The notes under the pieces are model-generated. The model saw nothing but the letters and a program-made list of their open reading frames with translations. It was not told where the DNA came from and made no database searches. Source: Gemmatimonadales bacterium (lineage in GTDB: Bacteria > Gemmatimonadota > Gemmatimonadetes > Gemmatimonadales > GWC2-71-9). From it: a stretch of 64,000 nucleotides of DNA. The position numbers were made by a program, and so were the translations under genes. The stretch is taken from contig JBBCJC010000002.1 of the NCBI GenBank assembly GCA_037189525.1, positions 256,001 to 320,000 on the forward strand, in the 5' to 3' direction. Positions 3,055 to 35,285 of this stretch are shown piece after piece (within the stretch, counting starts at the first letter, position 1; each line of letters begins with the position of its first letter).

Positions 3055-3975
3055 ATGAGCAATCAAGCACAGGGTACGTCGCTGGCGCCTCATCAGCAGG
3101 TCGACCGCCTGGTACGGGATTTGGCGGAAACACCCTATCCAATCCTGATCCTTGGCCCGACGGGTTCCGGGAAGAGTACGCTTGCCAGGTACATTCACTC
3201 GATATCGCCTCGCGCCGTCCACCCATTTGTGGAGTGTGCGGTCACATCGATTCCGGATGAACTCAGGCAGGCGGAACTACTCGGCTCTATGAAAGGGGCC
3301 TATACAGGTGCCTATCACGATCGCGTTGGCTTTGTCGAACAAGCGCACACCGGCACATTGTTTCTCGACGAGCTTGGGCACGCGTCGCTTCGCTTTCAAC
3401 AAACACTCCTTGGCATTCTCGAGACTGGCCTCGTTCGACGAATCGGCAGCAGCTATCAGCGCACAGTTGATGTCCGAATCATCTGCGCGACATCTGTGAA
3501 TTTGGCAGCTCGTTCGCAGGAAGGCCTGTTCCTCGAAGAGCTACTCTATCGGGTGGACTGCCTCACGGTTTCTTTACCATCACTTCGTGAGCGTCGTCAG
3601 GAGATTGTACCACTTGCAACTCGATACTTGCAGGAGGCGTTTGTAGAGCTGGGTCGTGACTTTGTTCCTGTGTTGTCTGATGATGCGGCGGTGATTCTTC
3701 GCAATGCACCGTGGCCCGGAAACATGAGGCAGCTCCGGTCAGTTTGCCAGTACATTGCCAGCAGACTGCGGAGCCCACGTCCTGTTCAACCGACTGATAT
3801 TCCCGAACAGATCCGCGGAATGACAAAAGGGCATCAAACGAAACACGAAGAAGCTCAAGCGTTGTTAGACGCCACACGGGGCAACAAATCCGAGACTGCG
3901 CGCCTGATGGGTATCTCGCGACCGTCGCTCTACAAGCTCCTGGCCGAAGCATCTACGACGGTCCGTAAAGATTGA
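3055..3975 (+). CDS. Sigma-54-dependent transcriptional activator (AAA+ plus Fis HTH), no N-terminal sensor domain
   Basis: Walker A GPTGSGKS, GAYTGA variant of GAFTGA, Walker B LFLDE, WPGNMRQL, C-terminal GNKSETARLMGISRPSLY HTH. Confidence 0.92.
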   Translation: MSNQAQGTSLAPHQQVDRLVRDLAETPYPILILGPTGSGKSTLARYIHSISPRAVHPFVECAVTSIPDELRQAELLGSMKGAYTGAYHDRVGFVEQAHTGTLFLDELGHASLRFQQTLLGILETGLVRRIGSSYQRTVDVRIICATSVNLAARSQEGLFLEELLYRVDCLTVSLPSLRERRQEIVPLATRYLQEAFVELGRDFVPVLSDDAAVILRNAPWPGNMRQLRSVCQYIASRLRSPRPVQPTDIPEQIRGMTKGHQTKHEEAQALLDATRGNKSETARLMGISRPSLYKLLAEASTTVRKD

Positions 3976-4010
3976 CAGCAACTATCCAAACACAAGTGTA
4001 AAACTCTACA
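3964..4010. promoter_or_regulatory. Candidate upstream activator sites (TGT-N8-ACA-like pair)
   Basis: CGTAAAGATTGACA (3964-3977) and TGTAAAACTCTACA (3997-4010) lie about 65-110 bp upstream of the -24/-12 element, in a locally AT-rich stretch. Confidence 0.45.
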
Positions 4011-4075
4011 ACTCCGGCCCTGCGCCCCCGGCGCTAACGCGTTGTCATACAACAGCGTTGCCGTTTGGTCGTTGC

Positions 4076-4091
4076 TGGCCCACCGCCTGCA
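4076..4091 (+). promoter_or_regulatory. Sigma-54 -24/-12 promoter for the gsp operon
   Basis: TGGCCCACCGCCTGCA has GG-N10-GC spacing and sits about 35 bp before the gspE ATG at 4125. Confidence 0.65.
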
Positions 4092-4124
4092 CTACAACAG
4101 GTGAGGCCCGCCTCGAGGCGAACC

Positions 4125-5621
4125 ATGTCCATGCCTACGTTGCGTACACGTCTTGCCCTGCACGACATGTTTCGGCAGGAGTACCTCGCTTACTACAAGG
4201 TACTCCCCCTAGAGGTCGTGGACGGACAGGTTCGCGTGGCGGTATCGGGCGATCCCGAACCGAACGTCCTCGAGGATCTCGGTAAGACGTTCGACGCCGA
4301 AGTCGAGCCGATCCAAACAGATCCGGAGCAGCTGCTCGACGGTATTCGCTCGGCGTTCGCGACTGCGGAATCGGTGTCACATATGTTTGCGGGAAGTCTC
4401 GCGGCTGAAGCCAATGAGGCTGTCCCGCGAATCTCATCAGTTGCGGACGCCCGAGATCAGGCAAACCAGGCCCCGGTCATTCGCTATGTCAACTTGGCGA
4501 TCCGCGACGCGTTCGAGTCGGGTGCAAGTGACATCCATCTCGATACGACACGCGGGGGCCTTAGAGTCCGGCTCCGTATCGATGGCGTGCTCTTCGATTA
4601 CCAACCCCCTCCACCGGGTATACAGATCCCGATCCTGTCACGGATCAAGTTATTGGCCGAACTGGACATCGCAGAACGGCGCGTACCACAAGATGGCCGG
4701 GTCCGGGTGCGGTTGGACAACCAGGAGCTCGACCTTCGTGTTGCTGTTGTTCCCGCGCTTCATGGAGAATCTGTCGTAATACGGCTGTTGGATGGCGGAG
4801 CGGTCAATGTCGATCTCAAGGGTCTTGGTATGGATCCGGAAACGTTCGCTGCCGTTTCCACCCTAACCCAAAAGGCGAATGGCGTTGTGCTCACGACGGG
4901 CCCTACGGGGAGTGGGAAAACGACGACGCTATACGGCATGCTCGGACAACGGCGCGTTGTGGAGGAAAAGCTCATCACGATCGAGGATCCAATCGAGTAC
5001 TACTTGGACGGTGTCACGCAAATACCGATCCGAAATGGAAGCGGGCTCGGATTTGTCGACGTCTTGCGCAGCATCCTGCGCCACGATCCGGATGTAATCA
5101 TGGTCGGTGAAATGCGGGATGCCGCTACGGCTGCCGTTGCGGTCCAGGCAGCCCTGACCGGGCACCTGGTGCTCTCTTCTCTCCACACTAATAACGCGGC
5201 CGCGGCAGTAACTCGTCTGATCGACCTTGGTGTCGACCCGTATATCCTAGCCGCCACGTTGGAGGGCGTCGTCGCCCAAAGGCTGGTGCGACGGATCTGT
5301 CGCCACTGCTCAGCACGCTATTGGCCCGGAGCAGCCACCGTTTCGGTTGCTGCGGGGAGATCGATCGACGGCGTCGCTCTGTACCGTGGAATCGGATGCT
5401 CCGAGTGCCGGAATACTGGCTACCGAGGACGGATCGGAATCTTTGAAGTCCTTGTCTTAGATGAGGCGCTCAAGCGACAGCTCACGAGTGGTCACGAAGT
5501 AGACACCATACGACACGCCGCAGTAGAAGGGGGAATGCGTACCTTACGTCAGGATGCCTGGAATAAGGTGTTGACAGGAGCAACTACAGTCGAGGAGGTC
5601 ATTCGTGTACTCGGGGCTTGA
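4125..5621 (+). CDS. gspE: Type II secretion ATPase GspE/PulE
   Basis: ASDIH, LDIAERRVPQDGR, GPTGSGKTTTLY, TIEDPIEY, LRHDPDVIMVGEMRD, TGHLVLSSLHTN and two CxxC motifs. Start moved from 4065 to ATG 4125 (GAGG RBS). Confidence 0.95.
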   Translation: MSMPTLRTRLALHDMFRQEYLAYYKVLPLEVVDGQVRVAVSGDPEPNVLEDLGKTFDAEVEPIQTDPEQLLDGIRSAFATAESVSHMFAGSLAAEANEAVPRISSVADARDQANQAPVIRYVNLAIRDAFESGASDIHLDTTRGGLRVRLRIDGVLFDYQPPPPGIQIPILSRIKLLAELDIAERRVPQDGRVRVRLDNQELDLRVAVVPALHGESVVIRLLDGGAVNVDLKGLGMDPETFAAVSTLTQKANGVVLTTGPTGSGKTTTLYGMLGQRRVVEEKLITIEDPIEYYLDGVTQIPIRNGSGLGFVDVLRSILRHDPDVIMVGEMRDAATAAVAVQAALTGHLVLSSLHTNNAAAAVTRLIDLGVDPYILAATLEGVVAQRLVRRICRHCSARYWPGAATVSVAAGRSIDGVALYRGIGCSECRNTGYRGRIGIFEVLVLDEALKRQLTSGHEVDTIRHAAVEGGMRTLRQDAWNKVLTGATTVEEVIRVLGA

Positions 5622-6072
5622 TTCCAATAGGAGTCGCGCATCGCTGTCGAGGCGGGGCTTTACCCTACTCGAGATTATGGTCAGCATCACGATCATCGCC
5701 ATTCTGGCGGGGTTGGTGGTCCCGATGGTCTTTCAGCATGTTGGCGATGCCAAACGGGCAGCTGCGGAAGCCGATATCGAAGCGCTCGGCCTGGCACTCG
5801 ATTCATACGCGCTTGCCGTGGGGCGATATCCAACGACGGATCAGGGTCTCGCGGCACTGGTCACCCGGCCGGAGCCAGTGGCCAGCGGATGGCGCGGCCC
5901 ATATCTGAAGCGCGGTGTTCCGAAAGATCCTTGGGGCAACGACTACCAGTATACGAGCCCGGGGACTGTGAATTCGACCAGCTACGACCTGGTGAGCTAT
6001 GGACGAGACGGGCAAGCCGGTGGCCTCGGCGATGACGCGGATATTCGCTCGTGGGAACGGGCATCCCAATGA
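5605..6072 (+). CDS. gspG: Major pseudopilin GspG
   Basis: RRG|FTLLEIMV prepilin site; GRYPTTDQGLAAL, WRGPYL, PKDPWGNDYQY, SYGRDGQAGG. Confidence 0.95.
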   Translation: MYSGLDSNRSRASLSRRGFTLLEIMVSITIIAILAGLVVPMVFQHVGDAKRAAAEADIEALGLALDSYALAVGRYPTTDQGLAALVTRPEPVASGWRGPYLKRGVPKDPWGNDYQYTSPGTVNSTSYDLVSYGRDGQAGGLGDDADIRSWERASQ

Positions 6073-7241
6073 AGCGCTATCGCTACCACGGCGTTTCCAC
6101 GAGCGGCGCGCGGACATCCGGCACCATCGTGGGCAACACATCACAGGAGGTCGATGCCGTCCTCGCCGAGCGCGGCGTGCATACCCTGGCCGTCGTACTG
6201 GATTCACAGAGTCCAAACCGTGTTTCGCGGCAACAACTGGCCATCGTATTCCGGTCAATCGCCACGTTGTCGGGAGCCGGGTGCACGCTTCCACAAGCAA
6301 TTGCGACAACGGAGCATCAGGTGGCAACCAAACGTCTCAAGCCCGGACTGGCCGACACGCTGCGCCTAGTACTCCAGGGAGAGTCGTTGGCCGATGCCTT
6401 GGAGTGCACCCTCTCTCCCCCGCCGAGCGTCATCGGCCTCATTCGGTTTGGTGAATCGAGCGGGCAGCTGGAAATGGCCTTGGCCGAAGCCGCATCGCAG
6501 CTCGAAACGGAGGCATCTGCCGTGGCAAGTATCCGAAAGGCGATGGCTTATCCGGCGGTGTTGGGTGTAGCTGGCAGCGCATCGATGCTCGCAATCGTCT
6601 ATTGGGTGCTGCCCCGTTTCACAGCATTGCTGATCGATTCAGGGCAGCCGTTGCCAGCCGCAACGGGATTCGTACTGGGCGGCGCGGCGTTGTTGCGCAA
6701 ATACGGCTTACTCACCTTTTTCGTCATCCTCCTTTCCGCTGTCGGATTGGTGCAGTGGGTTCGTGCGACGAATCGGATCGAACGCGTTTATGCCGTTTTC
6801 CTCGAGATCCCGCTACTCGGTCCCACCCGATCAACCTGGATCGCGGCACGGTTGAGTAGAGTGCTTGGTACGCAACTCTGCTCCGGCCTACCCCTTCTCA
6901 AGGCGCTCGACATCACGCACGCCGGTATCCGTGACCCTTGTATCGCTGCGAGACTCCGCCAGGCAATCGATGAGATCAGCAAAGGTATCGGCGTTGCGTC
7001 GGCGTTCGGAACAGCGCGCCTCCTGCCCGTGTCGATCCTACCGCTGGTTGCCATCGGCGAGTCGAGCGGAAACCTCGGCACCATGCTGTTACGGAGCAGC
7101 GAGATCTGCTCGAAAGAGGTCGACCAGCGCGTTAGCGTGATGATTGGCATGCTCGAGCCAGGTCTCGTGATCGCCCTGGGTGGAGGTGTGGCGGTGCTGG
7201 CAGCTGCCATGTTGCAAGCGGTCTATGCATTGCGGCCGTAG
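6069..7241 (+). CDS. gspF: Inner-membrane platform protein GspF
   Basis: Two T2SSF repeats (GESSGQL...AMAYP and GESSGNL...MLEP) with TM helices; ATGA overlap with gspG. Confidence 0.9.
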   Translation: MKRYRYHGVSTSGARTSGTIVGNTSQEVDAVLAERGVHTLAVVLDSQSPNRVSRQQLAIVFRSIATLSGAGCTLPQAIATTEHQVATKRLKPGLADTLRLVLQGESLADALECTLSPPPSVIGLIRFGESSGQLEMALAEAASQLETEASAVASIRKAMAYPAVLGVAGSASMLAIVYWVLPRFTALLIDSGQPLPAATGFVLGGAALLRKYGLLTFFVILLSAVGLVQWVRATNRIERVYAVFLEIPLLGPTRSTWIAARLSRVLGTQLCSGLPLLKALDITHAGIRDPCIAARLRQAIDEISKGIGVASAFGTARLLPVSILPLVAIGESSGNLGTMLLRSSEICSKEVDQRVSVMIGMLEPGLVIALGGGVAVLAAAMLQAVYALRP

Positions 7242-7506
7242 ACCCGACCGTCACAGAGGACAAGGCTTCACGCTCGTCGAGCTTCTCGTTGTCGTTGTGA
7301 TCATCTCAATTGCCGTTGGTGGAGCCGCTATGAGCCTGACTGCCATAACCTCCGAGGCTTCGCCCACGATAACACCGGCCCTATGCCGCTCCGATGCAGT
7401 CAGGCGGCGTCAGGACGTACGTGCAGATTGGAATGGCCAGACGCTTCTCTGTCTCCCGGACGGCCGTGTCATCGGCCTCGGTGCGCGAGAGCTGGAAGGA
7501 GAATGA
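7225..7506 (+). CDS. gspH: Minor pseudopilin, GspH-like (short)
   Basis: QG|FTLVELLVVVVII prepilin motif and operon position; start codon uncertain. Confidence 0.7.
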   Translation: MHCGRRPDRHRGQGFTLVELLVVVVIISIAVGGAAMSLTAITSEASPTITPALCRSDAVRRRQDVRADWNGQTLLCLPDGRVIGLGARELEGE

Positions 7507-7510
7507 TCTG

Positions 7511-7846
7511 GTGCCGCCGCGAACTAACGCCGGATTCTCACTGTTAGAGGTGTTGATTGCGCTGTCGATCGTGAGTATTGCGGGCCTAGCAGCGATATCC
7601 AAAGTAGGCGCCGCTGGTACCACACTGCGCGAGGTTGCCAGACGCGAAGCAGAAATGGAAGCCGCGCACAACCTGTTGGCAACGGCCATGACCTGGTCCC
7701 GCCGTGAACTCGACCAACGACTCGGCTCGACCCGATCTGGGGCTTTCGTCCTGAGTGTGAGTCGACCTCGATCCGGACTGTACCGCCTGGCCGTTCGCTC
7801 CGACCACGATCTGCTCGTGACAGTCGTCCACGTGGAGGCACCGTAG
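7511..7846 (+). CDS. gspI: Minor pseudopilin, GspI-like
   Basis: AG|FSLLEVLIAL prepilin motif; GTG start inferred. Confidence 0.75.
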   Translation: MPPRTNAGFSLLEVLIALSIVSIAGLAAISKVGAAGTTLREVARREAEMEAAHNLLATAMTWSRRELDQRLGSTRSGAFVLSVSRPRSGLYRLAVRSDHDLLVTVVHVEAP

Positions 7847-7852
7847 CTTGTC

Positions 7853-8386
7853 ATGGCCAGCCGCCGGGGATTCACCCTATTGGAGGTACTCGTTGCGCTG
7901 ACCGTCTCCGGTGTGGTGCTGCTGACGGTTCATCAACTGGTCGTTGCAATGACGAGCTACCTGGACGACGTTCGCCGCTCATCCAGGACCCACAGCGCCG
8001 AGATGAACGGCCGCCGCTGGCTCCGATCGGCCTTGGCATCGACTATGTCGCCGACCGATTCATTCCCATTCGCCGGGACGAACGTATCCCTCACCTTTTC
8101 AGCTCGAGTACGGCAAGCAGGTGGCTGGTATGAGCTGGAGCGAATTCTGATTGATCTACAGGGCCGTGACCTCGTCGTGCAACGATCGTTGAGTGGGCGG
8201 CTGGTCCTGGCATCGCAGATCGAATCGATGACAATCGACTATTGGCTCGATGGCGAGTCGAGTCGGCCATGGCTCCGAGGATGGTTGTCATACGGGACCA
8301 TGCCTCACTTCGTCCGGTTCCGACTCAAACGCATCGATCGTTCGACGGTCGACACGTTGGTCTTGATGATTCGAGGCCGCCAATGA
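7853..8386 (+). CDS. gspJ: Minor pseudopilin, GspJ-like
   Basis: RRG|FTLLEVLVAL; C-terminal W...W...P..V.F pattern typical of GspJ. Confidence 0.8.
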   Translation: MASRRGFTLLEVLVALTVSGVVLLTVHQLVVAMTSYLDDVRRSSRTHSAEMNGRRWLRSALASTMSPTDSFPFAGTNVSLTFSARVRQAGGWYELERILIDLQGRDLVVQRSLSGRLVLASQIESMTIDYWLDGESSRPWLRGWLSYGTMPHFVRFRLKRIDRSTVDTLVLMIRGRQ

Positions 8387-9204
8387 ATCGAAACGGATCA
8401 GCCATGCTTGCTGCGCTATGGCTCCTGGCGCTTCTCGCTGCGATTGGGCATTGGGGCTTTCGAGAACTTGAGGACGACATCCGTGCTGCCATGAACCGAA
8501 TCAATCTGACGAAGGCTGCTTGGGCACGTGACGCCTGCCTGGAAATTGCCAAGGGCGACTTTCGCGACCTCTGGGCGTCGACCATGCGCAATGGTACCGA
8601 TGAGCCACGTCAACTGACGATGACACAGCTTCGGCAGCTTGACCAGGACTCGATTGCGCTGGCGGAGGGAGTCTGGTGCCGAATGATTTTCACCGATGTC
8701 AATGCCCGGCTCAATCCCAACATGATCGACTCCTCTACGGTCAATTGCCTCGTGGAAGAGGATGATCTCGTGTCACGCTGGATAAATCATCGCCCTCATG
8801 CATCCGTCGAAGCGCTCGCACAGACCCTTGCACTTGATTCGGCCCGTGTCATCGGGCTTCGTGATGTCGTTTCGGTATACAGTACCGGCTCCCTCAATGT
8901 GAATACGGCATCTGCTCAAGCCCTCGCGTGCGCCATTGGTGTGTCGGAGGCATCCGTAAGGGCAGTAATCCACGCCCGGGAACAGTATCGGGGGTTTGTC
9001 ACGGTAGAAGACGCACTCGCTGCGATCCCGATCGCCGACCGACCCCTGCATACCGCTATCGTCGTTCCACTGACGACATCCGTGATTCGCTTCGTCGTGA
9101 ACGTTTCCGGCACGGCAGGGCAACCCCCTGTCCATGCCACGGCAACGGTCCAAGGCACCACATCGGACCACCGGATGCTCATTTTTCAGAGAGAGGCCGA
9201 ATGA
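8383..9204 (+). CDS. gspK: Minor pseudopilin, GspK-like
   Basis: NG|SAMLAALW (no Glu+5, as in GspK), D.NARLN and GSLNVNTAS motifs; ATGA overlap with gspJ. Confidence 0.8.
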   Translation: MNRNGSAMLAALWLLALLAAIGHWGFRELEDDIRAAMNRINLTKAAWARDACLEIAKGDFRDLWASTMRNGTDEPRQLTMTQLRQLDQDSIALAEGVWCRMIFTDVNARLNPNMIDSSTVNCLVEEDDLVSRWINHRPHASVEALAQTLALDSARVIGLRDVVSVYSTGSLNVNTASAQALACAIGVSEASVRAVIHAREQYRGFVTVEDALAAIPIADRPLHTAIVVPLTTSVIRFVVNVSGTAGQPPVHATATVQGTTSDHRMLIFQREAE

Positions 9205-10100
9205 AAGGCCCCATCCGCCTGCGAATCGCCTCCGCTCCGACTCCCGGCAGCGCAATCGATGATCTCCTTCAGTCAGTGGGGTCGGCGCCACGACGTGTGG
9301 TCGTGGTACTTGGCGATGCGTTGGTACAGCGCCGCCGCCTCACCGATCTGCCGCCGGCACGTCGATCGACTACCCGGCGGCTGGCTCAACGACACAGCAC
9401 ACGGTACTTCCGCATTCGAGATGGGGGCGTCCTTGTCGATCTCGTGCCGGAGATGCCGTCAGGTCGGGAAAAGGCGTGGCTGGCCGCCGCCGCCCCAGGC
9501 GAACTCGTCGATTCGCTCCTGGCAGCGGCCACTCGCCTCGGCTACTTCATCGAGGATGTCATACCGGATACCAGAGCAGGGTGGTCCGGCCTCAGCTTCC
9601 TTCCCGCCTCCGAGCAGTGGAGGCGACTGAAGCAGCATTGGAAGAACACGGCACATATCGCTCTTGGGGTGTTGTTGATCGTCGCGATGGCGTGGACCGC
9701 TTCATTTGTAATGCGGTGGCGCATCGTTCGGCAGTTGGACTCCGGATTAGCGAGTGTCGATAGTGTGGTGGCTGCCGTAAGCGAAGCCCGTGCAGCGTAC
9801 GGCATGCTGCACGAGTTGACGACAACGATGCAGCAAGCCCAAGGCGACCGCAACAAGCTCAGTGCCCTGATGACGGCTGTTGTCCGCGCGCTCCCCGATT
9901 CTGTGGTTTTAACCACAATGTCTCTCGATCTCTCGGGGACTGGTCGGCTCGCCGGGTTTGCTGAAGAGGCGCTCGCCGTCAACGCCGCACTTCACCAGGT
10001 GCCCGGTCTCGTGAACCTTCAGCTAGAGGGCGTACCAGTCGTAGACGCAACCGGTGGGCGCAGCTGGATGCGTTTTGCCCTTCGCTCGGTACAACCGTGA
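9201..10100 (+). CDS. GspL/PilN-like assembly protein
   Basis: Cytoplasmic N-domain, one TM, coiled coil, ALPDSVVL...GRLAG PilN-like domain; ATGA overlap. Confidence 0.7.
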   Translation: MKGPIRLRIASAPTPGSAIDDLLQSVGSAPRRVVVVLGDALVQRRRLTDLPPARRSTTRRLAQRHSTRYFRIRDGGVLVDLVPEMPSGREKAWLAAAAPGELVDSLLAAATRLGYFIEDVIPDTRAGWSGLSFLPASEQWRRLKQHWKNTAHIALGVLLIVAMAWTASFVMRWRIVRQLDSGLASVDSVVAAVSEARAAYGMLHELTTTMQQAQGDRNKLSALMTAVVRALPDSVVLTTMSLDLSGTGRLAGFAEEALAVNAALHQVPGLVNLQLEGVPVVDATGGRSWMRFALRSVQP

Positions 10101-10654
10101 CTCCGATTCGTCTTCACAGTCGTGTCGCTGGCCTCCTCGGTTTGGGCGTAGTTCTCGTGCTCGGCACCCGCGGAGTGTCCCACGCCGAGCGGACCTTGCA
10201 GACGCGCCGAGAGGTTGCCGAACTGCGAATTGCTCGCCAGCACCTTGCACTTCGTACGCTGAGCGAGATCGAAGCAGGTCGGGGTCGGACGGATTCACTC
10301 GTCCAGGCGTTTCAGGAGGCTGTCATACCAGCTGCAGAGTGGGAGTCTGGCGCTGCAGAGCTGGGAACTCTCGTACGGGAAGCATTGATGCGATTCGGTG
10401 CTGTGATCGAGTCTATATCTCCGGTGCCTCGGGACACGACATTAGGGTCTGTTGTGAAGCCTGTATCAATCCGTGTGGTATTTCAATCGGAATTGCAGGG
10501 CGTGGTCGACCTGTTCGCTTATGTCAACCGCGCTCGGACAATACTCGTTCCTCGATCGATTCAGATTGTGTCGACCGACGCATTTGCAGAATCGAGTGTA
10601 CCCGAGGTGCTCAAGGTTGAGCTTGTTATCACCGGATGGTACATCAACCGATGA
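10097..10654 (+). CDS. GspM/PilO-like protein
   Basis: N-terminal TM, coiled coil, ferredoxin-like C-terminus ending ITGW; operon position. Confidence 0.65.
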   Translation: MTPIRLHSRVAGLLGLGVVLVLGTRGVSHAERTLQTRREVAELRIARQHLALRTLSEIEAGRGRTDSLVQAFQEAVIPAAEWESGAAELGTLVREALMRFGAVIESISPVPRDTTLGSVVKPVSIRVVFQSELQGVVDLFAYVNRARTILVPRSIQIVSTDAFAESSVPEVLKVELVITGWYINR

Positions 10655-11145
10655 GAACGCTGATGATACTCTCCTACGTTGTGAGAGGATGTTTGATCCT
10701 TGGCTGCATCGTATCGATTGTCAAGGTTGCGACGCTAGGCCGGGATGTGCGGACCGCATCCGCGACGGCCCACAATGCAGATGCCATGTCTGACAGCCCT
10801 ACCCCAGGCGCGGACAGTCTTTCGCTGGTCATCGTGAGTCAGCGAGCACCATTTCGCGTCAACCGGTTCGTACCAGCCACTGTGCCGCCGGTCGGTACCC
10901 CAAGCCAAGCTAGCCAGACTGATGATGTGGCTGCAGCACGTATAACCGGCTTTGTGATGGGCCCCCGGGTCATGGCAGTCATCGAGGGCATTCCTGGCAT
11001 TTCCCCATCTGTGGCCGTCCGCGCGGGCGACAAGGTCGGTAACTGGTTAGTTCGCGGCATCTCGAAGAGCGGGGTCGTGCTCGAACGATCCGGACGGGTC
11101 GTTCGACTGACGCTGCCCGAGCTTACACGGGGGAAAGGCCAATGA
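10651..11145 (+). CDS. GspC/PilP-like protein
   Basis: N-terminal TM, PF motif, low-complexity linker, ITG...AVIEG...GDKVG HR-like domain; directly precedes the secretin. Confidence 0.6.
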   Translation: MRTLMILSYVVRGCLILGCIVSIVKVATLGRDVRTASATAHNADAMSDSPTPGADSLSLVIVSQRAPFRVNRFVPATVPPVGTPSQASQTDDVAAARITGFVMGPRVMAVIEGIPGISPSVAVRAGDKVGNWLVRGISKSGVVLERSGRVVRLTLPELTRGKGQ

Positions 11146-12590: not shown

Positions 12591-12614
12591 ACGCCACGTC
12601 TGGAACGGATCATC

Positions 12615-14499: not shown

Positions 14500-15125
14500 G
14501 TCGCTCCCGCATGAAGTCGAGGCTAATTAGGATAGGACGCCCGGCACGTTTCATGGCCACAGGATAATGAAAGCGTTTCGCGCGTTGGGTTCGCTTCGGT
14601 TCACGATGGCGCGATGACGAGCACTCGCCGCAGCACTGTTGCTGTTCCGACTGAGTGGTCCCTGTACGCCGTACGTCGTTTAGAGAGCCGCCGCACATCC
14701 GACTGGCGAGGTCAACAATGTTGTTGATGAAGGCACCAAACTGCTTGGTAGTCCGAACCCCGAGAGACCCCAAAATCCCCTCGCTCCAAGACATGTTGAC
14801 GAATGGGTGCCCAACCGCGATACGTCCGAGCTTACGTGATCCGACGATCGTTCCAATGTGGTCGCGGCCAAGCCGATGCGGCTGATCTCTCGCCGGTCAG
14901 CAGGTCGTGGCCTAGCAACGCACCCACGATGTCTATAGGGTCCCCAGCAACCGGAATGAATCCAAAGCCGATCGCAGACGCATCGAACACGGTCGCCCAC
15001 TGATGACCTCGGGACACATCCCAAAACGGGGCAGAGAAGTTGGCGGGGTTCCGTTGACGAAGGCGTAGAGGTTGAGCCCGCCGGCGGCGAGGCCGATTGG
15101 GCATTTCTGCGTGAACCACCTGAGG
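14500..15125 (-). pseudogene. Degraded orphan Rhs C-terminal toxin cassette (core end, PT-TG-like segment, toxin)
   Basis: Frameshifted RWFTQKCPIGLAAGGLNLYAF / NPANFSAPF compared with RFTQEDPIGLAGGLNLYGFAAGDPVNFSDPFG in the intact Rhs; followed by GFIPVAGDPIDIVGALLGHDLLTGE. Confidence 0.8.
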
Positions 15126-15192
15126 CTAGACCGCCCGACCGATCTTATTACGAGAGAGTCCAAGCCTATGGGCCAGGACTCTCTCGCACCCT

Positions 15193-15543
15193 TCACCATA
15201 CGGCAAGCGGCTTATTCTCACCGGAAAGGAAGTGCGCCCACTCCCCACCACGCTGGTCATTCGGCCCCAAGGGAATGACCAACCGATCCCCGGAACTGAA
15301 GTCGACCTCAATAGCTGCTGCACCAGCCACGGCGCGTGCTACGCGACTTCCGATCAGTTCGCAGAGCGCGTCGCGGGACCCCCCTGCCGGGAACCTGATT
15401 TCGCGAGCGCCTCGTCGAATGAGCGGGTGTGCGATACACCGGAGGATCCGCCCGTGAAAATGGATCTCTACGTAGTCCATCACGAAGCTCACAGCGCTTA
15501 CCTCTTCCCCCAGCAGCTCGTCCAGCGGGTTCTTCTCAGTCAT
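15193..15543 (-). CDS. Probable cognate immunity protein of the Rhs toxin
   Basis: 116-aa ORF starting 28 bp after the Rhs stop, with a GGGAGGGG RBS; function inferred from position. Confidence 0.65.
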   Translation of the reverse strand: MTEKNPLDELLGEEVSAVSFVMDYVEIHFHGRILRCIAHPLIRRGAREIRFPAGGSRDALCELIGSRVARAVAGAAAIEVDFSSGDRLVIPLGPNDQRGGEWAHFLSGENKPLAVW

Positions 15544-15571
15544 TCCCCCCTCCCAGCAATTGCCCGTTTCG

Positions 15572-18500
15572 TCATGGAAGGTAGATGTGAGCTGTGGGGT
15601 CGTCTGGCCGAAGTGTCCGCCCAGTCGTGGGACTGACAGTCTGACCGCTCTTATTCATGTAGATCACACGACGCCGATGATGAGCCGTCTCATCCATGAC
15701 CCTCACTCCTGTAACGCGAGCATCCATGCCCTTTCCTCCCTGCCCACCTAAGAACTGGACTCCCGGCGCCCGAGTAGCATGAGGACCTGTCGCGCCAGTG
15801 GGAACGGGAATTGAGGTCCCTTTTGACGTGACGAGGAAGTCTACTGCCCGTTCACCTCCGCGAGCCACATCTGCAACGTCATCAGCCGCTCCGAGGGCTC
15901 TGCGTAGGACGCCCACTGATGGTACGCCGGGTAGGGCACCTGCAACGTCTAGCGCCGCATCAATTGCCGTACCGACCGACGGGGCCGCGATGAACTTCGC
16001 GACACTGACCACCGCCATCCCGACATCAAGGCAGTTCGAAGGCGGGATGGGACAGAGCCCGAAGGGGTCGCTGAAGTTAACTGGATCGCCAGCAGCGAAG
16101 CCGTAGAGATTCAGCCCACCGGCCAGCCCGATCGGATCTTCCTGGGTAAACCGCCCCGTCCGCGCATCATAGTACCGATTCCGCCGGTAGTCCAATCCCC
16201 CCGCCCCGTCGCGCTTGCCCTCGAGCAGCGACCCGTGCCATGCGTACCGGGTTTGATTCCCATGCTGCTGGTCGTACGCCGTGCGAGACCCAAACCACGA
16301 AATGATATAGCACCGATTCGCCCCCGTCCCCAGCGCGACACAGGGGAGCGCCCCGTTATACGCTGTATCTACGACACCACTCCCGAACGCTCCCAGCGGC
16401 GCCGTCCCCTGAGCATTCCAGAACGGCACGATCGTCTTGGTGCCCGTCCATGTCACCGGGGTAGCGACCGGCGTGTCCGTGTAATTAAAACGGATGACAC
16501 TGAGCGGCGCATCGATGATCGGGCCCGGCGTGTACAACACCTGCCCATAGAATCGATTGGGATCCGGCACTCCCGGCGTATTGCTATGCGTCACGCTGTA
16601 AGGCCCCGAGTCCTGTTCCCACTGCGCACTGGCAGCAGCCGTCCCCGGCGCCTGGATCTCTGCCAACTCCTGCGTCCCATCCCACACGGTCCGCCGGATA
16701 AAATCCGAGTAGCATTCCGGCTGAACCGAGTTCACACACGGACTCTGCATCCAAGTCCAGACGCGGCGCCCTAAGGCATCATACCGATACTCCTCGTTGT
16801 AATGCTCGACCCACGGCGTGAAGCTCGCCGGCGTCACCCAGGTATCGAGCGCCACCAACCGGTTGTCGAGCCCATAGATCGACACCCGCTCGCGGTCAGT
16901 CCCGGAAAAGTAGGACGTTTCGCGATCGTAGTCAGTGTTCCCTGCGGCATCGTACGTGTACACTGAGGCACCCGATTGCGTCCCGGACTTCGTAATGCCC
17001 GTTAACCGCCCTGTGCTGGCCTGGTACGCATAGGCTTTGTTCGCAGTGAAGTAGACGACTGAGGCGCCCGCCTTCGTCGAGTCGAAGCGACTGCTGGTGT
17101 AGAGGTTCCCCATTGGGTCGTGCGCGAGCGTCTCAGCCGACCCGAACTCGGTCGTGCTTCCGAACGGATTGCGCCACGTACTCCGCGTCCCGAGCGTCGC
17201 CACAGCCCCCAGGCCGCCGTACGTCGCCTGCGTTCGGTTGTTATAAAACGCCCCATCGCCCGAGCGCAGCAGTTTGCTCCTGGCGTCGTACCGCATCGTG
17301 TCGATGTTGCGAATCGGGTTGTGCGGCCAGCGACCCCCCGTCGTCCCGCCATCATTGTTGATACGATCCCGAACCAGCCGGCCATCGGCATCCCAGCTCA
17401 TGCGGCGCGTGTAGGACCCGGGGTAGACGATCGTACTGTCTTCGCCGCGGACGGTCTGCTGGAAGGAAAAGACTGCGCCGGAGGCATCCCGGACCTGGAC
17501 GAGATCGCCCGTAACCGCGTGGTAGGCGTACTTGATCGAATCCCCCGCCGCCGTCGCGAAGATCGACGGGGCACGCACGCGGCGCCGCCGCCCATTCCGG
17601 TCGTAGCTGTACTGAATCGTGTAGCTATGCCCGCTGAAGGTCGTGTCCACCCGGGCAATTTGTTGGGTCTCGGTCTCGAGCAGGCCGTGCGGATAGTACG
17701 TCCGCGTCACGCGGGCATACCGATTGTTGGCTGTGGCGAGCTGGCCATCTGGCGCATAGCTATAGGTCTGACTATCCCGCGGGACCACGTACGGATACGG
17801 GAAGCCGGCGGAAGCCCCTCCATGTTTCGCCAGATAGAGCCAGGTCGGCTGCGCGCGGCTCACGGAGGGGATGACGCGGATGACGACCCGGTTGAGCGCA
17901 TCGTATGTCGAGGTGATCACCGGTCCGGAGGGGAACCGGCGTCCGACCTGGACGGTGGGGTTCCCCGCGTGATCGACGACGACACTGTCGATGCCGCCAT
18001 CGGGCGCCTGCTCCGCAATCTGCCGCCCGGCCTGGTCGTAGCGCCACTGCGTAGTGAGCGTATTGATCCCGTTCGGATTTGGCCTCATCCACCGCATGGT
18101 CGACAAACGCTGACTATTGTTGTTGTAGGTATGCCGGACAAAGGTCGACTCCTGCGGTGCGCCCCCGCCGAACGCGGTCACGAGACTCGTGTCGTCCGTG
18201 ATCCGGTCGAGCAGGTCATAGGTCAATCGCTGCTCGACTTTCTGGTTCTGCGCGGTGTCGATCGGTGAGATGGTTTTGATCAGGCGGCCAATCACGTCGT
18301 TGGTATAGGTCGTGACGTATTGCTTCGGGGTCTTGACCGTCTCGGTGTTTCCCCTCGCATCATAGGTATACGTGTAGGTGGCCGTCTGTCCGTTGACCTT
18401 CGGCAGAACGATCGTCAGCAATCGCTTCGACGTCGCATGGTAGGTGAAGTTGACGCGGCGCGAGGTATCCGACGCGGGCGTCCCGGACTGCTGCCAGAGC

Positions 18501-20185
18501 CGCTTCCCATCAGTCGCGTCGAGCTGGAACACCGTCGTATCTTTCTCGGGCCGAATGATCATCGCCAGCTGATCGAACTTCGTGTTCCAGACGTACCGCG
18601 TCGTATCCCGCACGCCCGGGGTACTGGTGACGGAGTCGATGACGTGCGTCGGGTTCCCGACCCCCAAGTCGTACACGAGGTGCTGCACACGGCCCGTCGG
18701 CGTCTGAATCCGCACCGGTGACCATCCGCAGGTCTGGGGCCACGGCGGCACACACATCTTATGTTGCACGCGCGTCGTATTCCCGTACGCATCGGTCAGC
18801 TTCCGGGCTGGGCCAAAGCGCGACTGCATGATGACCGTCGTATCGCCCACGTCGGTACGGGGTCCGTTGATGAACGTCGTCACGTCGCTGGTATCGACCG
18901 CCGTCGGAGCGCGCCCGCGACTTTCGGAGGCGATCAGACTCACGACGATATCGTTGGTGGGATTGCTCATCTTGATACGAGAGGAGATCAGCCGCTTCCC
19001 AGTGTCATACCCAAAGGTGTCCACGACTGCCATTCGATCGGTGCGCTTCGCCATGAGATTCGAGTCGGCCGCACCAGTCCGATATGCAAAATTGACGGCG
19101 GCCGCCCCGGGGTTGGTGATTGCGGTGACCAAGCCACCAGGATTCGTCACGGTCGTGACCCGCGACGTGCCACCTATCGGCGGGGCAATGACCGACGTGA
19201 GCCGATTCGACGGGTGAAGAAACGTGTACTGCTGCCCAGCCGGTGGGAGCGTAATGATGAGCGAACCGGCGCTGTGCGTGAAGGTCGTGGTATGGCCGAA
19301 CCGATTGACCGTTTCCACATGCTGTCCATTGGCATCGAACTGAATCCGGACGCCTTCCGCGCCGACACGGGTCCATGGCTTCAATGGTGTCCCGGGATTG
19401 TAGATGAGGGTGTCGACGCGAGCGTACGCCGAAGTAGTCCACCGATTGGTCGCGTTGGGCAAGAACTGCCGAGCGCTGCCATCCCCATCGACCCAAACGA
19501 TAACCTGGTGTGCCGGGTTCGGCGCCAGCAGTTGCTCGAGGCCGGCCAGCCACCATCCGGCTCCGAACCGACTGTTCTTCCGGTTGACGATCGGCATAAT
19601 TCCCGTGACCGGAGGCCCGGCGATCGGGACGCCCCCATAGATATTGGCGACCTCGTACTTGTAGTTGTAGAACCCGGTAGTGTCGTTGAAGGCGTTATAG
19701 ACGAACGCCAGTCGCCGTATTGAACCGGGGGTCCACTGATTCCCCGGCCACCGCTGCGTTTGTGCCGGCTGGTCGACCCCATTGATGACGAGCCAGAACC
19801 TGACCTGGACACTGTCGGGAATCGTCGTCGTGATCGATTGCAACACCCGGATCGCGATGATCGGATAGGGATGGGCAAACTCGCTGTTGTATAAGAGCGT
19901 CGGCGTGCGCTGCGTATCAAAGGTCCGCGTGCTGGGCAGCTGATGCACGATCCGGAGGTTCCCGCATTCGGCTGCCGCCGATGGCCCGACCGCGATTGTC
20001 AGACAGGCGCTACGTTCGACCGGATAGCCCGAGTTGTCGATATCCACCCCGGCCGCAGGTGCTTGCTGCGTGGCCATGATACGGTTGATGGTACGCGCGA
20101 GCCACGACGGCGTATCGCGCGAGAGGGTGCTGATCGGCAGGATGGCCACGGCCATCATCGCGGGCAGAAAGGCACGAACACGCAT
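15572..20185 (-). CDS. Rhs/YD-repeat polymorphic toxin with Sec-type signal peptide
   Basis: N-terminus MRVRAFLPAMMAVAILP; many YD repeats; Rhs core GGLDYRRNRYYDARTGRFTQEDPIGLAGGLNLYGF...DPFGL; about 160-aa variable C-terminus. Confidence 0.92.
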   Translation of the reverse strand: MRVRAFLPAMMAVAILPISTLSRDTPSWLARTINRIMATQQAPAAGVDIDNSGYPVERSACLTIAVGPSAAAECGNLRIVHQLPSTRTFDTQRTPTLLYNSEFAHPYPIIAIRVLQSITTTIPDSVQVRFWLVINGVDQPAQTQRWPGNQWTPGSIRRLAFVYNAFNDTTGFYNYKYEVANIYGGVPIAGPPVTGIMPIVNRKNSRFGAGWWLAGLEQLLAPNPAHQVIVWVDGDGSARQFLPNATNRWTTSAYARVDTLIYNPGTPLKPWTRVGAEGVRIQFDANGQHVETVNRFGHTTTFTHSAGSLIITLPPAGQQYTFLHPSNRLTSVIAPPIGGTSRVTTVTNPGGLVTAITNPGAAAVNFAYRTGAADSNLMAKRTDRMAVVDTFGYDTGKRLISSRIKMSNPTNDIVVSLIASESRGRAPTAVDTSDVTTFINGPRTDVGDTTVIMQSRFGPARKLTDAYGNTTRVQHKMCVPPWPQTCGWSPVRIQTPTGRVQHLVYDLGVGNPTHVIDSVTSTPGVRDTTRYVWNTKFDQLAMIIRPEKDTTVFQLDATDGKRLWQQSGTPASDTSRRVNFTYHATSKRLLTIVLPKVNGQTATYTYTYDARGNTETVKTPKQYVTTYTNDVIGRLIKTISPIDTAQNQKVEQRLTYDLLDRITDDTSLVTAFGGGAPQESTFVRHTYNNNSQRLSTMRWMRPNPNGINTLTTQWRYDQAGRQIAEQAPDGGIDSVVVDHAGNPTVQVGRRFPSGPVITSTYDALNRVVIRVIPSVSRAQPTWLYLAKHGGASAGFPYPYVVPRDSQTYSYAPDGQLATANNRYARVTRTYYPHGLLETETQQIARVDTTFSGHSYTIQYSYDRNGRRRRVRAPSIFATAAGDSIKYAYHAVTGDLVQVRDASGAVFSFQQTVRGEDSTIVYPGSYTRRMSWDADGRLVRDRINNDGGTTGGRWPHNPIRNIDTMRYDARSKLLRSGDGAFYNNRTQATYGGLGAVATLGTRSTWRNPFGSTTEFGSAETLAHDPMGNLYTSSRFDSTKAGASVVYFTANKAYAYQASTGRLTGITKSGTQSGASVYTYDAAGNTDYDRETSYFSGTDRERVSIYGLDNRLVALDTWVTPASFTPWVEHYNEEYRYDALGRRVWTWMQSPCVNSVQPECYSDFIRRTVWDGTQELAEIQAPGTAAASAQWEQDSGPYSVTHSNTPGVPDPNRFYGQVLYTPGPIIDAPLSVIRFNYTDTPVATPVTWTGTKTIVPFWNAQGTAPLGAFGSGVVDTAYNGALPCVALGTGANRCYIISWFGSRTAYDQQHGNQTRYAWHGSLLEGKRDGAGGLDYRRNRYYDARTGRFTQEDPIGLAGGLNLYGFAAGDPVNFSDPFGLCPIPPSNCLDVGMAVVSVAKFIAAPSVGTAIDAALDVAGALPGVPSVGVLRRALGAADDVADVARGGERAVDFLVTSKGTSIPVPTGATGPHATRAPGVQFLGGQGGKGMDARVTGVRVMDETAHHRRRVIYMNKSGQTVSPTTGRTLRPDDPTAHIYLP

Positions 20186-20218
20186 GCGCGCTCCAAGAAA
20201 CGGGTCGATCCCGTGCAG

Positions 20219-20234
20219 AGCATGCGCTGCGCCA
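20219..20234 (-). promoter_or_regulatory. Sigma-54 -24/-12 promoter for rhs
   Basis: TGGCGCAGCGCATGCT on the minus strand has GG-N10-GC spacing, about 35 bp before the ATG and its GGAG RBS. Confidence 0.65.
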
Positions 20235-20527
20235 TGATCCCGGTCACCGTAACAGCTGCAATGATATGGATTTAGAAATTATCCTCGATCCTACCCGCAA
20301 CCGGGATCGAACCACGCCCGAACGCTGCCGAACGCCCAAGGACGCGCCGGGCAGGAATTCACATCAATCGCTTGATTAGTATTAGGAGCCGAAAGAGGAT
20401 GCTGGCGTCGAGAAGGGCAGGCGAGAAATTCTGCCGGGCACAAGGCACGGCTTTCCTGTTCAATCCTGGTTAATCCAAGGTTCTTCCGAAGGACCCGCGC
20501 GCCGAAATATGTCGCCCTGCTTTCCAG

Positions 20528-20590
20528 AAGAAACCGATCTTGTCATTCCCACCTTGCGGCAAGATCGGAGGCACACGTGGCCCGTGTGCC
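20528..20590 (-). terminator. Probable terminator after the subtilase gene
   Basis: Tandem hairpins GGCACACG/CGTGTGCC and CCGATCTTG/CAAGATCGG, followed by TTTCTT on the minus strand. Confidence 0.55.
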
Positions 20591-20607
20591 CCCGTTGAAC
20601 CCCGCTA

Positions 20608-22320
20608 TCAACAGATCGGAAACCCACCAATGAGCATCATATCAGTCGCCGTCCTGCCCACGGACGTTACGGTGACCCTCAAGCGGAACTGATCCGTGGG
20701 GGAAGCCATTTCCTGATAAACATTTGAGTTGGAGCCTACAGGCTGCCAAACATTACTACAATCCAGTCGCTCCCACGCATAGGAGTTGTTAAATCCGTTC
20801 GTCGACATCGCAGTCCAGGTATCGAGCCCACCCGTTGGAGTACTGGGCCCAACGATCCAAGTGGCGAGTTTACCGTAGACGGCCTGCGGTGCATCGACCC
20901 GACCATAACCATAGTACGCATCATGGCCGGCCGCACCCCTGTCGATGGCATTCGAGGTCAACCGAGACCGTACCTGAGCCGCCGTCAGCGTCGGATGCTT
21001 CGTCCAAACTAGCGCCGCAACACCGGCGACAACAGGTGCCGACAGGGATGTTCCACACGAGCTCCCATGGGATCCATTGTCCACCATGTTGGTTGCCCAG
21101 AATGGGGCGGCCAGTTCAGCCTCATTACCATAAGTCGAATAAGTCGAACCGTAGGGGCATTTTCCGGAAAATGCAAAACTGTCGCTTGGGGTCGTTCCAG
21201 TCACCGCAATGACTTGGGCGTGTCGGGCGGGATACGTAATTGTATTCGCCGTGTTATTGCCGGCACCTGCGACGAGAAGGTGCCCAGCGTTAGACGCCCC
21301 AATCACGGCTTGATGCCTCCACCAATCGTTGACAGGGTCGCCGAAACTCATATTGATGATCTCGCGTGATCCGCCGTTGTTCTCAAGCCAGTTGAGCGCT
21401 GCGATTTGGGAGCCAACGGGACAATTAGATTTTGAGATCCCATAATCGAAATAACAGATACGAATGGAACGAAAGTGCTTTGGCTTCGGGCTAATGCCAA
21501 CATACCCGAAGCTGTTCATTCGGGCGGAAGCAACCCCGGCAACACGACTGCCATGCACCAGATCCCACGGCTGATAGCAGCGTTCGACAAGTCCGGCGAT
21601 GTATATGTACGAACACGCAGATGATGCGTGTCCAGGTCCATCATAGGACCATACGTCGTAGTGCACCGAATCGATCCCGCTATCAATCACGGTCACAATG
21701 GCACTGTCCCCATAGTTGCCCTCGGCTGCCCAAACATGATGCGCTCCGACCTTCTGAAGGCCCCAATCCTGGGCCTCGGAGAACATTACCGCGGCCGCTC
21801 CAGCGCCAGCACTCGAAAGCTCGCTGCTCCCGGCAGCTCCGATCTCGTCAACGATGTCGAGCTTTCGAAGGACCGGAGCCATCTGAGGATCGATGGTTGC
21901 TTGAAAGAAAGGAAGGCTTCGATAGGTCCGTACAACCTGAACGCCAAGGCGCTCGAGCTCTGCTCGCCCCTCCTGATAGGTTGTCTTCGTGATAGCCGGC
22001 GTATAGCCCATCTCCCGCGTTCGGCGATCACCTGGCGCTTTGAGAGCAATAAAAGCGCTACCCCGAGTGACCGCGATCGCCGCAACGAGTTCCTCGTCCG
22101 ACAGCTCAGGCGGGAGGCCTTCCGTGACAGGGATACTGCGGATGTAGTCCAATGGTTCGGGAAACGTCGGAATGGCGCCTGGCGGGTCGACGTGTGTCAC
22201 ACGACCCTCGATCCGTGGTTGTGCACCAGGTCCCTGTGGTTCTGCCAGATCATCGACTGTGCAGCTCGCCGCCAATAGTGCCAGCCCAGCCAGGATCAGT
22301 CGTCCCTGTTGCCGTCGCAT
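20608..22320 (-). CDS. S8 subtilisin-like serine protease, lipoprotein
   Basis: LAASC lipobox; catalytic triad IDSG / HGSRVAG / GTSLSAP; oxyanion AGN; YGYGRVDA. Confidence 0.92.
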   Translation of the reverse strand: MRRQQGRLILAGLALLAASCTVDDLAEPQGPGAQPRIEGRVTHVDPPGAIPTFPEPLDYIRSIPVTEGLPPELSDEELVAAIAVTRGSAFIALKAPGDRRTREMGYTPAITKTTYQEGRAELERLGVQVVRTYRSLPFFQATIDPQMAPVLRKLDIVDEIGAAGSSELSSAGAGAAAVMFSEAQDWGLQKVGAHHVWAAEGNYGDSAIVTVIDSGIDSVHYDVWSYDGPGHASSACSYIYIAGLVERCYQPWDLVHGSRVAGVASARMNSFGYVGISPKPKHFRSIRICYFDYGISKSNCPVGSQIAALNWLENNGGSREIINMSFGDPVNDWWRHQAVIGASNAGHLLVAGAGNNTANTITYPARHAQVIAVTGTTPSDSFAFSGKCPYGSTYSTYGNEAELAAPFWATNMVDNGSHGSSCGTSLSAPVVAGVAALVWTKHPTLTAAQVRSRLTSNAIDRGAAGHDAYYGYGRVDAPQAVYGKLATWIVGPSTPTGGLDTWTAMSTNGFNNSYAWERLDCSNVWQPVGSNSNVYQEMASPTDQFRLRVTVTSVGRTATDMMLIGGFPIC

Positions 22321-22408
22321 AGCTCCTCCTCACGCAGACTGTGGATAGGTCGTATGAAGCGGAGCGCGACCTCGGCACGTCCGCTGGTGAGCAGCATGAC
22401 CGAGCGCC

Positions 22409-22849
22409 CTATTTCCGGAGTGCCTTGGTTCGGACACCATCACGGATACCGGTAGCGCCCATTCCTGCAAGGTCCGCAGATGCGCACGACCCCGATGTCG
22501 GCTGGGTCATCGTATACATCCATATTCTCGAGACGCCATTGTCTGTCATCATCGGATCAGGAAATGGACCGCAGTCGACCTCCGTCCCGCGGCTCATCGT
22601 GGTCAAGCGCACATCGGTGAAGTACGGCACGACCGTCGTAGCACTCGACCGAAGGACGGCTTGAACGGATGCGGTGGACTGATCCACCACGATCATCCAT
22701 TCGATGACATCGGCAGGCGGACCAGACGTAGACTGCAGGATGGGAGTATGGGATGGCATGGGGAGTTGCGATCGAGGAGTGCCCTGAAGAAGGAAGAGCT
22801 GCCCGATGCCCAACGCGCCCATTGCCGCAACGATGAGGGGTGTACGCAT
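22409..22849 (-). CDS. Hypothetical exported protein
   Basis: Hydrophobic N-terminus MRTPLIVAAMGALGIGQLFLL; co-oriented upstream of the subtilase. Confidence 0.55.
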   Translation of the reverse strand: MRTPLIVAAMGALGIGQLFLLQGTPRSQLPMPSHTPILQSTSGPPADVIEWMIVVDQSTASVQAVLRSSATTVVPYFTDVRLTTMSRGTEVDCGPFPDPMMTDNGVSRIWMYTMTQPTSGSCASADLAGMGATGIRDGVRTKALRK

Positions 22850-22889
22850 TTTCCTATAGCCTCGCCGGAAGGGGTTGGCTTCGTACTCT

Positions 22890-22905
22890 CTCAAGTTATG
22901 AGCCA
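22890..22905 (-). promoter_or_regulatory. Candidate sigma-54 promoter (GA variant at -12)
   Basis: TGGCTCATAACTTGAG, about 40 bp before ATG 22849; has TTGA in place of TTGC. Confidence 0.45.
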
Positions 22906-28006: not shown

Positions 28007-28018
28007 CGAATCTCCACG

Positions 28019-35272: not shown

Positions 35273-35285
35273 TCCCGACTACCGA

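Follow-up and report, generated by a model that had tools for sequence, protein, structure and literature searches.

The closest described systems are Rhs toxins that carry a signal peptide or depend on a type II secretion system (T2SS). Bcn-A of Xanthomonas perforans is a 1398-aa (~150-kDa) Rhs bacteriocin with a downstream immunity gene, whose activity is found in the supernatant, depends on the T2SS secretin and is lost in an xpsD mutant (PMC7259588). The "T2SS/Sec-dependent" toxins of Zhang et al. (2012) combine a signal peptide, RHS repeats, variable tips and immunity genes; Table 1 of that report gives this class no signature neighbours and calls its route across the outer membrane a "default pathway" (PMC3482391). 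Myxococcus xanthus Rhs4 and Rhs5 (PMC10433427) and teneurin-like proteins (PMC13018210) are likewise signal-bearing YD-shell toxins of diderms that do not depend on a type VI secretion system (T6SS); no exporter is named in the available text of either report, and the latter speaks of no obvious delivery machinery. Here we analyzed a 64,000-nucleotide stretch of a Gemmatimonadales bacterium (contig JBBCJC010000002.1, positions 256,001 to 320,000; hereafter the window), in which a compact T2SS operon, gspE-G-F-H-I-J-K-L-M-C-D, converges on the gene for a 1537-aa Rhs protein. Analysis of related loci suggested that this gsp operon is probably a dedicated exporter of the adjacent predicted antibacterial Rhs toxins across the outer membrane. 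T2SS-dependent Rhs activity is already known from Xanthomonas, and the literature searched gave no account of a linked T2SS with predicted co-regulation.

Comparison with these systems revealed differences as well as similarities. Bcn-A relies on the general Xps T2SS together with the accessory ORFs 2–4 (ORF, open reading frame), and the available parts of its report describe no linked gsp operon or sigma-54 activators (PMC7259588). In contrast to the class of Zhang et al., in which signature neighbours are absent, the Rhs proteins studied here have a clade of gsp operons as their neighbourhood signature, while the signal peptide of that class is present according to a heuristic rule. Extra T2SSs with their own regulator and a narrow substrate are found in Pseudomonas aeruginosa, namely Hxc (substrate LapA) and Txc (substrate CbpE), the latter lying in a region of genome plasticity; as far as that source describes them, they export a small enzyme or a binding protein and are under phosphate or two-component regulation, whereas sensor-less sigma-54 activators accompany the T2SS of the window (PMC6567927). 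The marks of such a dedicated T2SS, own regulators and a co-regulated substrate, are also seen here, with one type of activator in 76 loci, another in 30, and a predicted shared promoter. T6SS Rhs effectors such as RhsA resemble the window protein in their YD shell, C-terminal autoprotease motif and toxin-immunity pair, and differ in being loaded in the cytoplasm through PAAR/VgrG, whereas the window Rhs has a predicted Sec signal and no such domain (PMC8765631). In the full-text literature, supplements and most subscription papers aside, we found no gsp cluster linked to Rhs and no such system in Gemmatimonadota.

Overall organization of the locus

The intact gsp operon occupies positions 4125–12590 on the plus strand, and its genes mostly overlap by 4–19 nt, with a 6-nt gap between gspI and gspJ, confirming the coupled cluster converging on an Rhs gene that had been proposed from this DNA alone (the original prediction). 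Two sigma-54 activators without a sensor domain border the operon; one of them, at 3055–3975, stands at the start of the interval given in the original prediction, which thus does not begin with a gsp gene. The minus strand opposite encodes a small protein predicted to be exported, a lipoprotein subtilase, the Rhs protein, a 116-aa protein, an Rhs-core remnant and a 214-aa ORF. The GC content of the region is 0.55–0.65, compared with 0.655 for the contig. The features of the proposed system are as follows.

3055..3975, plus strand: sensor-less sigma-54 activator a (AAA+ and Fis helix-turn-helix, GAYTGA; PF00158), upstream of the gsp promoter; forms its own tree group (support 96)
4075..4091, plus strand: predicted gsp operon promoter of the sigma-54 -24/-12 type (11.8 bits)
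4125..5621, plus strand: gspE, ATPase (PF00437; TIGR02533 scores above PilB and under its own cut-off; clade tree)
5605..6072, plus strand: gspG, major pseudopilin (TIGR01710, 153.6 bits; cut-off 88.85)
6069..7241, plus strand: gspF, platform protein (PF00482)
7225..9204, plus strand: gspH, gspI, gspJ and gspK, minor pseudopilins (N-methyl motifs, T2SSK; recurrent in relatives)
9201..11145, plus strand: gspL-, gspM- and gspC-like genes (weak GspM/XpsM match, weak PilN match; position, recurrence in 41–59 loci)
11142..12590, plus strand: short gspD, secretin of 482 aa (PF00263, one PF03958; alignment to PDB 5WQ7; clade tree)
12615..13670, plus strand: sensor-less sigma-54 activator b (GAFSGA; PF00158), final gene of the gsp operon
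15572..20185, minus strand: Rhs protein, 1537 aa, with predicted Sec signal, beta-sandwich, YD shell, autoprotease motif and C-terminal toxin-like domain (~1450–1537) (TIGR03696; models)
20219..20235, minus strand: predicted rhs promoter of the sigma-54 -24/-12 type, located 50 nt ahead of the rhs start (gspE-only matrix, 9.2 bits; joint matrix, 11.9 bits)

A clade of T2SSs is linked to rhs genes

To define the relatives of the window T2SS, the 251 genomes of the order were searched with GspD, Rhs, an Rhs core model and two TssC models. Outside the window 114 GspD matches were obtained, 69 of which are covered by the 67 regions (up to 40 kb) that were fetched; these regions contain nearly all of the top-scoring GspD matches and a minority of distant ones, the latter mostly from Rhs-bearing genomes. 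A further 80 loci with 10-kb flanks, the best 80 of 569 GspD matches in all species genomes, were added and assigned by their best BLAST match, and removal of 13 duplicates left 135 loci including the window (106 clade, 29 other). In the GspD tree (quick search) the clade comprises 44 rows, with a Shimodaira-Hasegawa-like approximate likelihood ratio test (SH-aLRT) support of 95, and the GspE tree contains a matching clade of 34 rows (support 97), 30 of them Rhs-linked. The GspD and GspE clades agree, and their loci share the order E-G-F..D, with gspE first and an activator usually directly after gspD. The best 80 of the 569 relatives bear Gemmatimonadota titles, except for three unclassified entries and one "Acidobacteria" entry that duplicates a Gemmatimonadota locus.

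A lack of association between gsp clusters and rhs genes had been named beforehand as one refutation of the original prediction; an rhs gene was present in 72 of the 106 clade loci compared with 3 of the 29 other gsp loci. The difference is seen as well when only loci with at least 7 kb of downstream sequence (48/62 vs 1/19) or with 15 kb on both sides (17/19 vs 0/13) are considered. The rhs genes adjoining clade gsp operons come from 31 genomes in 25 genera and all three families sampled, and an Rhs core was detected in 36 of the 38 clade genomes compared with 58 of the 213 other genomes. With the two TssC models, no TssC of either type was found in 31 of the 36 Rhs-positive clade genomes. 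In the usual layout, rhs comes directly after activator b, and a further rhs gene frequently diverges from gspE; the convergent layout of the window is a variant, and the linkage survives in downstream, divergent, convergent and two-sided arrangements. The top clusters of the 106 clade loci include no second exported family that recurs, and the recurrent families in the loci include no conserved chaperone or adaptor. A phylum-wide draw gave a strong GspD match in 2 of 82 genomes outside the three sampled families, so the module looks concentrated in Gemmatimonadales. Taken together, these counts show that this T2SS clade is conserved and genetically tied to polymorphic rhs genes.

Several loci of other composition were also observed. 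Three gsp loci of the sister clade, with the order G-F..D-E (G169:C140, G164:C31 and G151:C55), also adjoin rhs genes, which suggests either repeated origins of the link or an origin older than the clade. In G205:C3, G050:C171, G213, G001:C2, G013:C2 and G234, we observed a pair of clade operons, one operon surrounded by as many as three full-length rhs genes, or some 20 Rhs cores. At least 21 Rhs cores are present in genome G131, for which a GspD match at E 1e-30 was not obtained and no TssC stands among the matches listed, making it a candidate for another export route.

Predicted sigma-54 control of gsp and rhs genes

A general sigma-54 consensus was enriched before both rhs and gspE. A matrix was then trained only on 71 gspE upstream regions and used with a threshold of 10 bits; among the 60 rhs genes whose start was placed, 41 are preceded by a site reaching it, often about 50 nt from the start, and the controls gave 1.1 (shuffles), 2/113 (gspD) and 0/21 (internal gspE). 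The reciprocal matrix test recovered 38 of the 71 gspE regions. Within window positions 1–32000, the three sites of at least 9 bits are located before gspE, before rhs and inside the decayed tip described below, and none precedes the subtilase gene. A site before gspE was seen in 21 of the 35 Rhs-linked loci and in none of the 7 Rhs-free ones, which looks as though cargo-less operons had lost this promoter. RpoN is encoded in the host genome. These motif matches predict that the gsp operon and rhs are under shared sigma-54 control.

The presumptive regulators recur with the operon, activator b following gspD in 76 loci and activator a preceding gspE in 30, the latter being often absent. GAFTGA, or a sequence close to it, is retained by most activators. 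The Walker A motif of activator b lies a median of 41 codons after the gspD stop (n=58), and this short spacing leaves activator b no room for a sensor. AAA+ sigma-54 activators without an N-terminal sensor include PspF and HrpR/HrpS, a pair that serves a secretion system; the activators described here differ in flanking a T2SS and in that activator a is often absent. At one locus (L191:7936-14043), activator b is fused in frame to the downstream Rhs in a product of 2035 aa, perhaps by a lost stop or an assembly error. In addition, a gene of about 260 aa recurs about 9 kb upstream of the gspD end (L258:1969-2760 and nine other clade loci) and is possibly a further regulator.

Rhs proteins as probable cargo

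Signal peptides were called by a home-made rule, under which signal-like N-termini were found in 60 of 65 linked Rhs proteins; the rule also passed 83 of 107 GspD, which served as positive control, as well as 5 of 94 GspE and 27 of 117 activators. Many of the linked Rhs N-termini show a clear A-x-A/Q site. The window Rhs fits the earlier description of a protein with a Sec-like N-terminus and no PAAR or VgrG match, although its cleavage site is less typical than theirs; among the 23 linked Rhs proteins scanned, none matched PAAR, VgrG or SpvB, four have immunoglobulin-like (Ig-like) matches and one has a Tox-REase-7 tip. A model of residues 41–900 of the window Rhs, with a predicted local distance difference test (pLDDT) value of 89, has a YD shell nearest to Rhs cores, and in the structure ranking the teneurin-like protein (template modelling [TM] score 0.22) stands below T6SS Rhs cores (0.33–0.47). 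The core motif (PxxxxDPxGL type) ends with DPFGL at residue 1377. In RhsA the tip is released autocatalytically by the core's own aspartyl autoprotease (PMC8765631), and the autoprotease motif is present in the window Rhs. The tips vary between loci.

The predicted toxin tip and its likely partner

Downstream of rhs, the original prediction had noted a small gene and a second, decayed pair, both of which were found:

15193..15543, minus strand: likely cognate immunity protein, 116 aa, DUF6188-like (gene pairing, complex model)
14432..15110, minus strand: decayed orphan Rhs tip, with a frameshifted core-motif remnant and a broken extension (three-frame translation)
13855..14499, minus strand: 214-aa ORF, candidate orphan immunity gene by position (74% DNA match downstream of an orphan Rhs on contig C5)

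The product of 15193–15543 has 27 homologues including itself, 2 of which carry PF19686, and the same tip as in the window is encoded directly upstream in 18 of the 80 loci of this gene family, nine of them with an Rhs core. The modelled complex of the tip and this product scores 0.76 compared with 0.00 for the best control, on a measure whose mark was reached by 116 of 157 solved pairs and 2 of 215 mismatched pairs. Its contacts agree by at least 98% between runs, the partner has a pLDDT of 91, and the modelled interface includes the conserved tip residues R, Q and H. The model supports binding of the two proteins as a toxin-immunity pair, and 15193–15543 is likely the cognate immunity gene of the window Rhs. 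The tip itself has no Pfam family or PDB sequence match, and a search with this region matched only its own protein; Foldseek returned nothing at E 0.001 or better, the nearest fold being the polymorphic toxin PT7(Bc) (8OWU) as a weak match (E 0.12–0.19, TM 0.45–0.52). From this fold and weak atlas leads to Ntox47/Ntox30/Ntox17, our guess is that the tip is a candidate nuclease. The 214-aa ORF has no Pfam family.

The secretion machine and its host

The cluster encodes both the GspE ATPase and the GspF platform, and no retraction ATPase was found in it. GspG passes TIGR01710, and the complete H-I-J-K set of minor pseudopilins is present, as in secreting T2SSs. The gspL and gspC genes, for which no Pfam or NCBIfam model matched above its cut-off, were assigned by position and by conservation in relatives; matches are weak for GspM and GspL and lacking for GspC, and all three genes are positionally conserved. 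The secretin is of the GspD type and not PilQ, its ten best PDB matches all being T2SS secretins. The canonical T2SS secretin has the architecture N0-N1-N2-N3. The window GspD, with 482 aa and one Secretin_N domain, departs from it and is read from its sequence as N0, N3 and the secretin core, with N1 and N2 missing. The same short form occurs in sister loci; since these include Rhs-free ones, the short GspD is no special adaptation, and its interpretation as an adaptation to Rhs was rejected.

The host genome is 98% complete, and its secretins are the window GspD and one PilQ-like protein. The window GspD is thus the sole GspD-type secretin of the genome, and the T2SS, which had been called accessory, is not accessory to a housekeeping T2SS here. 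None of the 54 window ORFs scanned is a T6SS gene or a prepilin peptidase, as had been stated, and the peptidase expected to act in trans was located as the single one of the genome (PF01478 at C5:888394). The PF05943 search for a T6SS in the genome was blank; searches with PAAR and VgrG led to a divergent T6SS at C2:748-772 kb, about 470 kb from the window, with TssB, TssC, VgrG, TssG, ClpV, FHA, kinase, PAAR and DUF4123 genes, and the notion of a genome without T6SS was rejected. A TssC of the PF17541 type occurs in 6 of the 251 genomes of the order, and further divergent T6SSs may be missed. The Rhs core search of the genome found two cores, the window Rhs and one orphan, and none adjoining this T6SS. 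The orphan (C5:1055014-1059630) is 41% identical to the window Rhs, has a signal-like N-terminus and no sigma-54 site, is inserted after clpP, and is followed by a remnant related to the window 214-aa ORF; it could use the window T2SS in trans. A second cassette of activators a and b, 75–78% identical, lies at C2:336867-339585, in which activator a is frameshifted and a deletion between the start of gspE and the end of gspD has removed the gsp genes. Genes that by eye resemble a lasso-peptide cluster follow this cassette. The activators, sigma-54 sites, prepilin peptidase, orphan Rhs and divergent T6SS are all additions to the original prediction.

Two genes on the minus strand are regarded as passengers:

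20608..22320, minus strand: lipoprotein S8 subtilase, not a conserved part of the system (PF00082; lipobox, catalytic motifs)
22409..22849, minus strand: small predicted exported protein (no family; no homologue in the fetched loci)

Beside the island, window positions 23757–37588 encode an SNF2 helicase with a 706-aa partner, a DEDD exonuclease-BRCT protein, a GGDEF protein, a Ser/Thr kinase-TPR protein and a Fic protein, which are possibly defence-related.

Alternative explanations

The linkage, the signal-like N-termini and the shared predicted sigma-54 promoter together make the gsp operon a likely dedicated export route for Rhs proteins. Several observations weigh against this reading. 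The published RhsA shell measures 86 x 65 Å (PMC8765631), and opened GspD gates are 53 and 48 Å wide, with barrel expansion considered possible (PMC9251779); the Rhs shell (65 Å) is therefore wider than the published gates (48–53 Å). Of the 62 clade loci with 7 kb downstream, 14 show no Rhs in view. The loci are related and mobile, with integrases in 10, so co-inheritance inflates the linkage counts, for which no probability is given because kin are not independent. The signal rule is loose, passing 27 activators, the window Rhs combines a basic-hydrophobic N-terminus with an untypical cleavage region, and for 12 of the 60 rhs genes the sigma-54 motif is matched on the reverse strand as well. 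The window GspD and GspE lie on long branches (0.65 and 0.71, compared with medians of 0.25 and 0.21), so this copy may be drifting; the branches and the second cassette without gsp genes suggest that modules turn over. Rhs cores also occur in 48 of 184 genomes having neither clade T2SS nor TssC, a count that may include fragments and assemblies missing islands, and signal-bearing Rhs homologues occur in four genomes without the clade T2SS (G012, G240, G074 and G157), each with a single secretin match in a 629–781-aa frame. The G012 assembly has 10 contigs and a completeness of 98%, and the Rhs proteins of G012 and G240 look intact and are without the promoter.

These last genomes, the mismatch of shell and gate, and the three out-of-clade gsp loci that adjoin Rhs would fit a situation in which gsp and rhs belong to one island and one sigma-54 regulon while Rhs exits by another secretin, vesicles or lysis and the T2SS has a different, unlinked cargo. 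We consider this unlikely, because no alternative cargo recurs in the 106 loci, the link persists across varied arrangements, the gspE promoter is absent from all seven Rhs-free loci, and several unlinked rhs genes are without a promoter and lie among insertion sequence (IS) or integrase genes. The machine might instead serve Rhs in another way, by threading a partly folded chain or by forming a filament for display or contact-dependent delivery, like the Tad-like Kil system. The shell size again, the secretin read as lacking N1 and N2, the variable Ig-like N-terminal arrays, which suit surface display, and the proposed surface location of the signal-bearing Rhs4/5 of Myxococcus (PMC10433427) speak for such a role, which we nevertheless judge improbable, given a GspG above its cut-off with the full minor set of secreting T2SSs, no retraction ATPase in the cluster, and Bcn-A activity in the Xanthomonas supernatant (PMC7259588). 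The original prediction allowed the T2SS to be dedicated to Rhs, the protease or both, and suggested that the protease may process the cargo; the Rhs part is upheld by linkage, signals and shared promoter. Export of the subtilase, which would process Rhs, is very improbable: the gene is adjacent to rhs on the same strand and has, as predicted, a lipobox and intact catalytic motifs, whereas, of the two families expected to recur beside GspD/GspE homologues, rhs does and S8 is found at 1 of the 106 clade loci, the window itself. An unlinked paralogue at C2:190264-191988, the missing sigma-54 site and the autocatalytic release of the tip, for which Rhs has its own motif, also led us to reject the subtilase as part of the system. 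The least credible explanation is that Rhs is cargo of the divergent T6SS, with the T2SS a chance neighbour; the TssB, TssC, VgrG, TssG, ClpV, PAAR and DUF4123 genes of the host would permit it, whereas the signal-like N-termini, the lack of PAAR or VgrG in the 23 Rhs proteins scanned, the 31 of 36 Rhs-positive clade genomes in which no TssC was found, and the absence of an Rhs core next to that T6SS argue against it.

Proposed mechanism and significance

For a dedicated Rhs exporter we propose the following mechanism. The activators would switch on the sigma-54 promoters of gspE and rhs together, and activator b, lying within the gsp operon, would give positive feedback. Rhs would cross the inner membrane by Sec, and on folding in the periplasm it would form a shell enclosing the tip that it has cleaved off itself. 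The pseudopilus, for whose maturation the prepilin peptidase of the host would act in trans, would push the Rhs protein through the short secretin. The gene downstream of rhs would shield the producer, orphan tips may be swapped by recombination at the core end, and the subtilase would stand outside the system. More tentatively, these operons could form a weapon lineage of T2SSs that passes whole Rhs shells of 150–350 kDa, which exceed every published GspD gate in width, through a shortened secretin, with a self-amplifying sigma-54 switch arming both machine and toxins, as the main antibacterial system of T6SS-lacking Gemmatimonadota.

A compact T2SS encoded in a single operon and tied to a toxin names a candidate outer-membrane machine for signal-bearing Rhs proteins and makes the route testable, and the matched families of secretins and substrates offer a handle on substrate recognition by T2SSs. 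If the proposal is true, the T2SS would be an interbacterial weapon with a role comparable to those of type V secretion system contact-dependent inhibition (T5SS-CDI) and the T6SS, the size limit of secretins would be challenged, and a little-studied phylum would gain a competition system.

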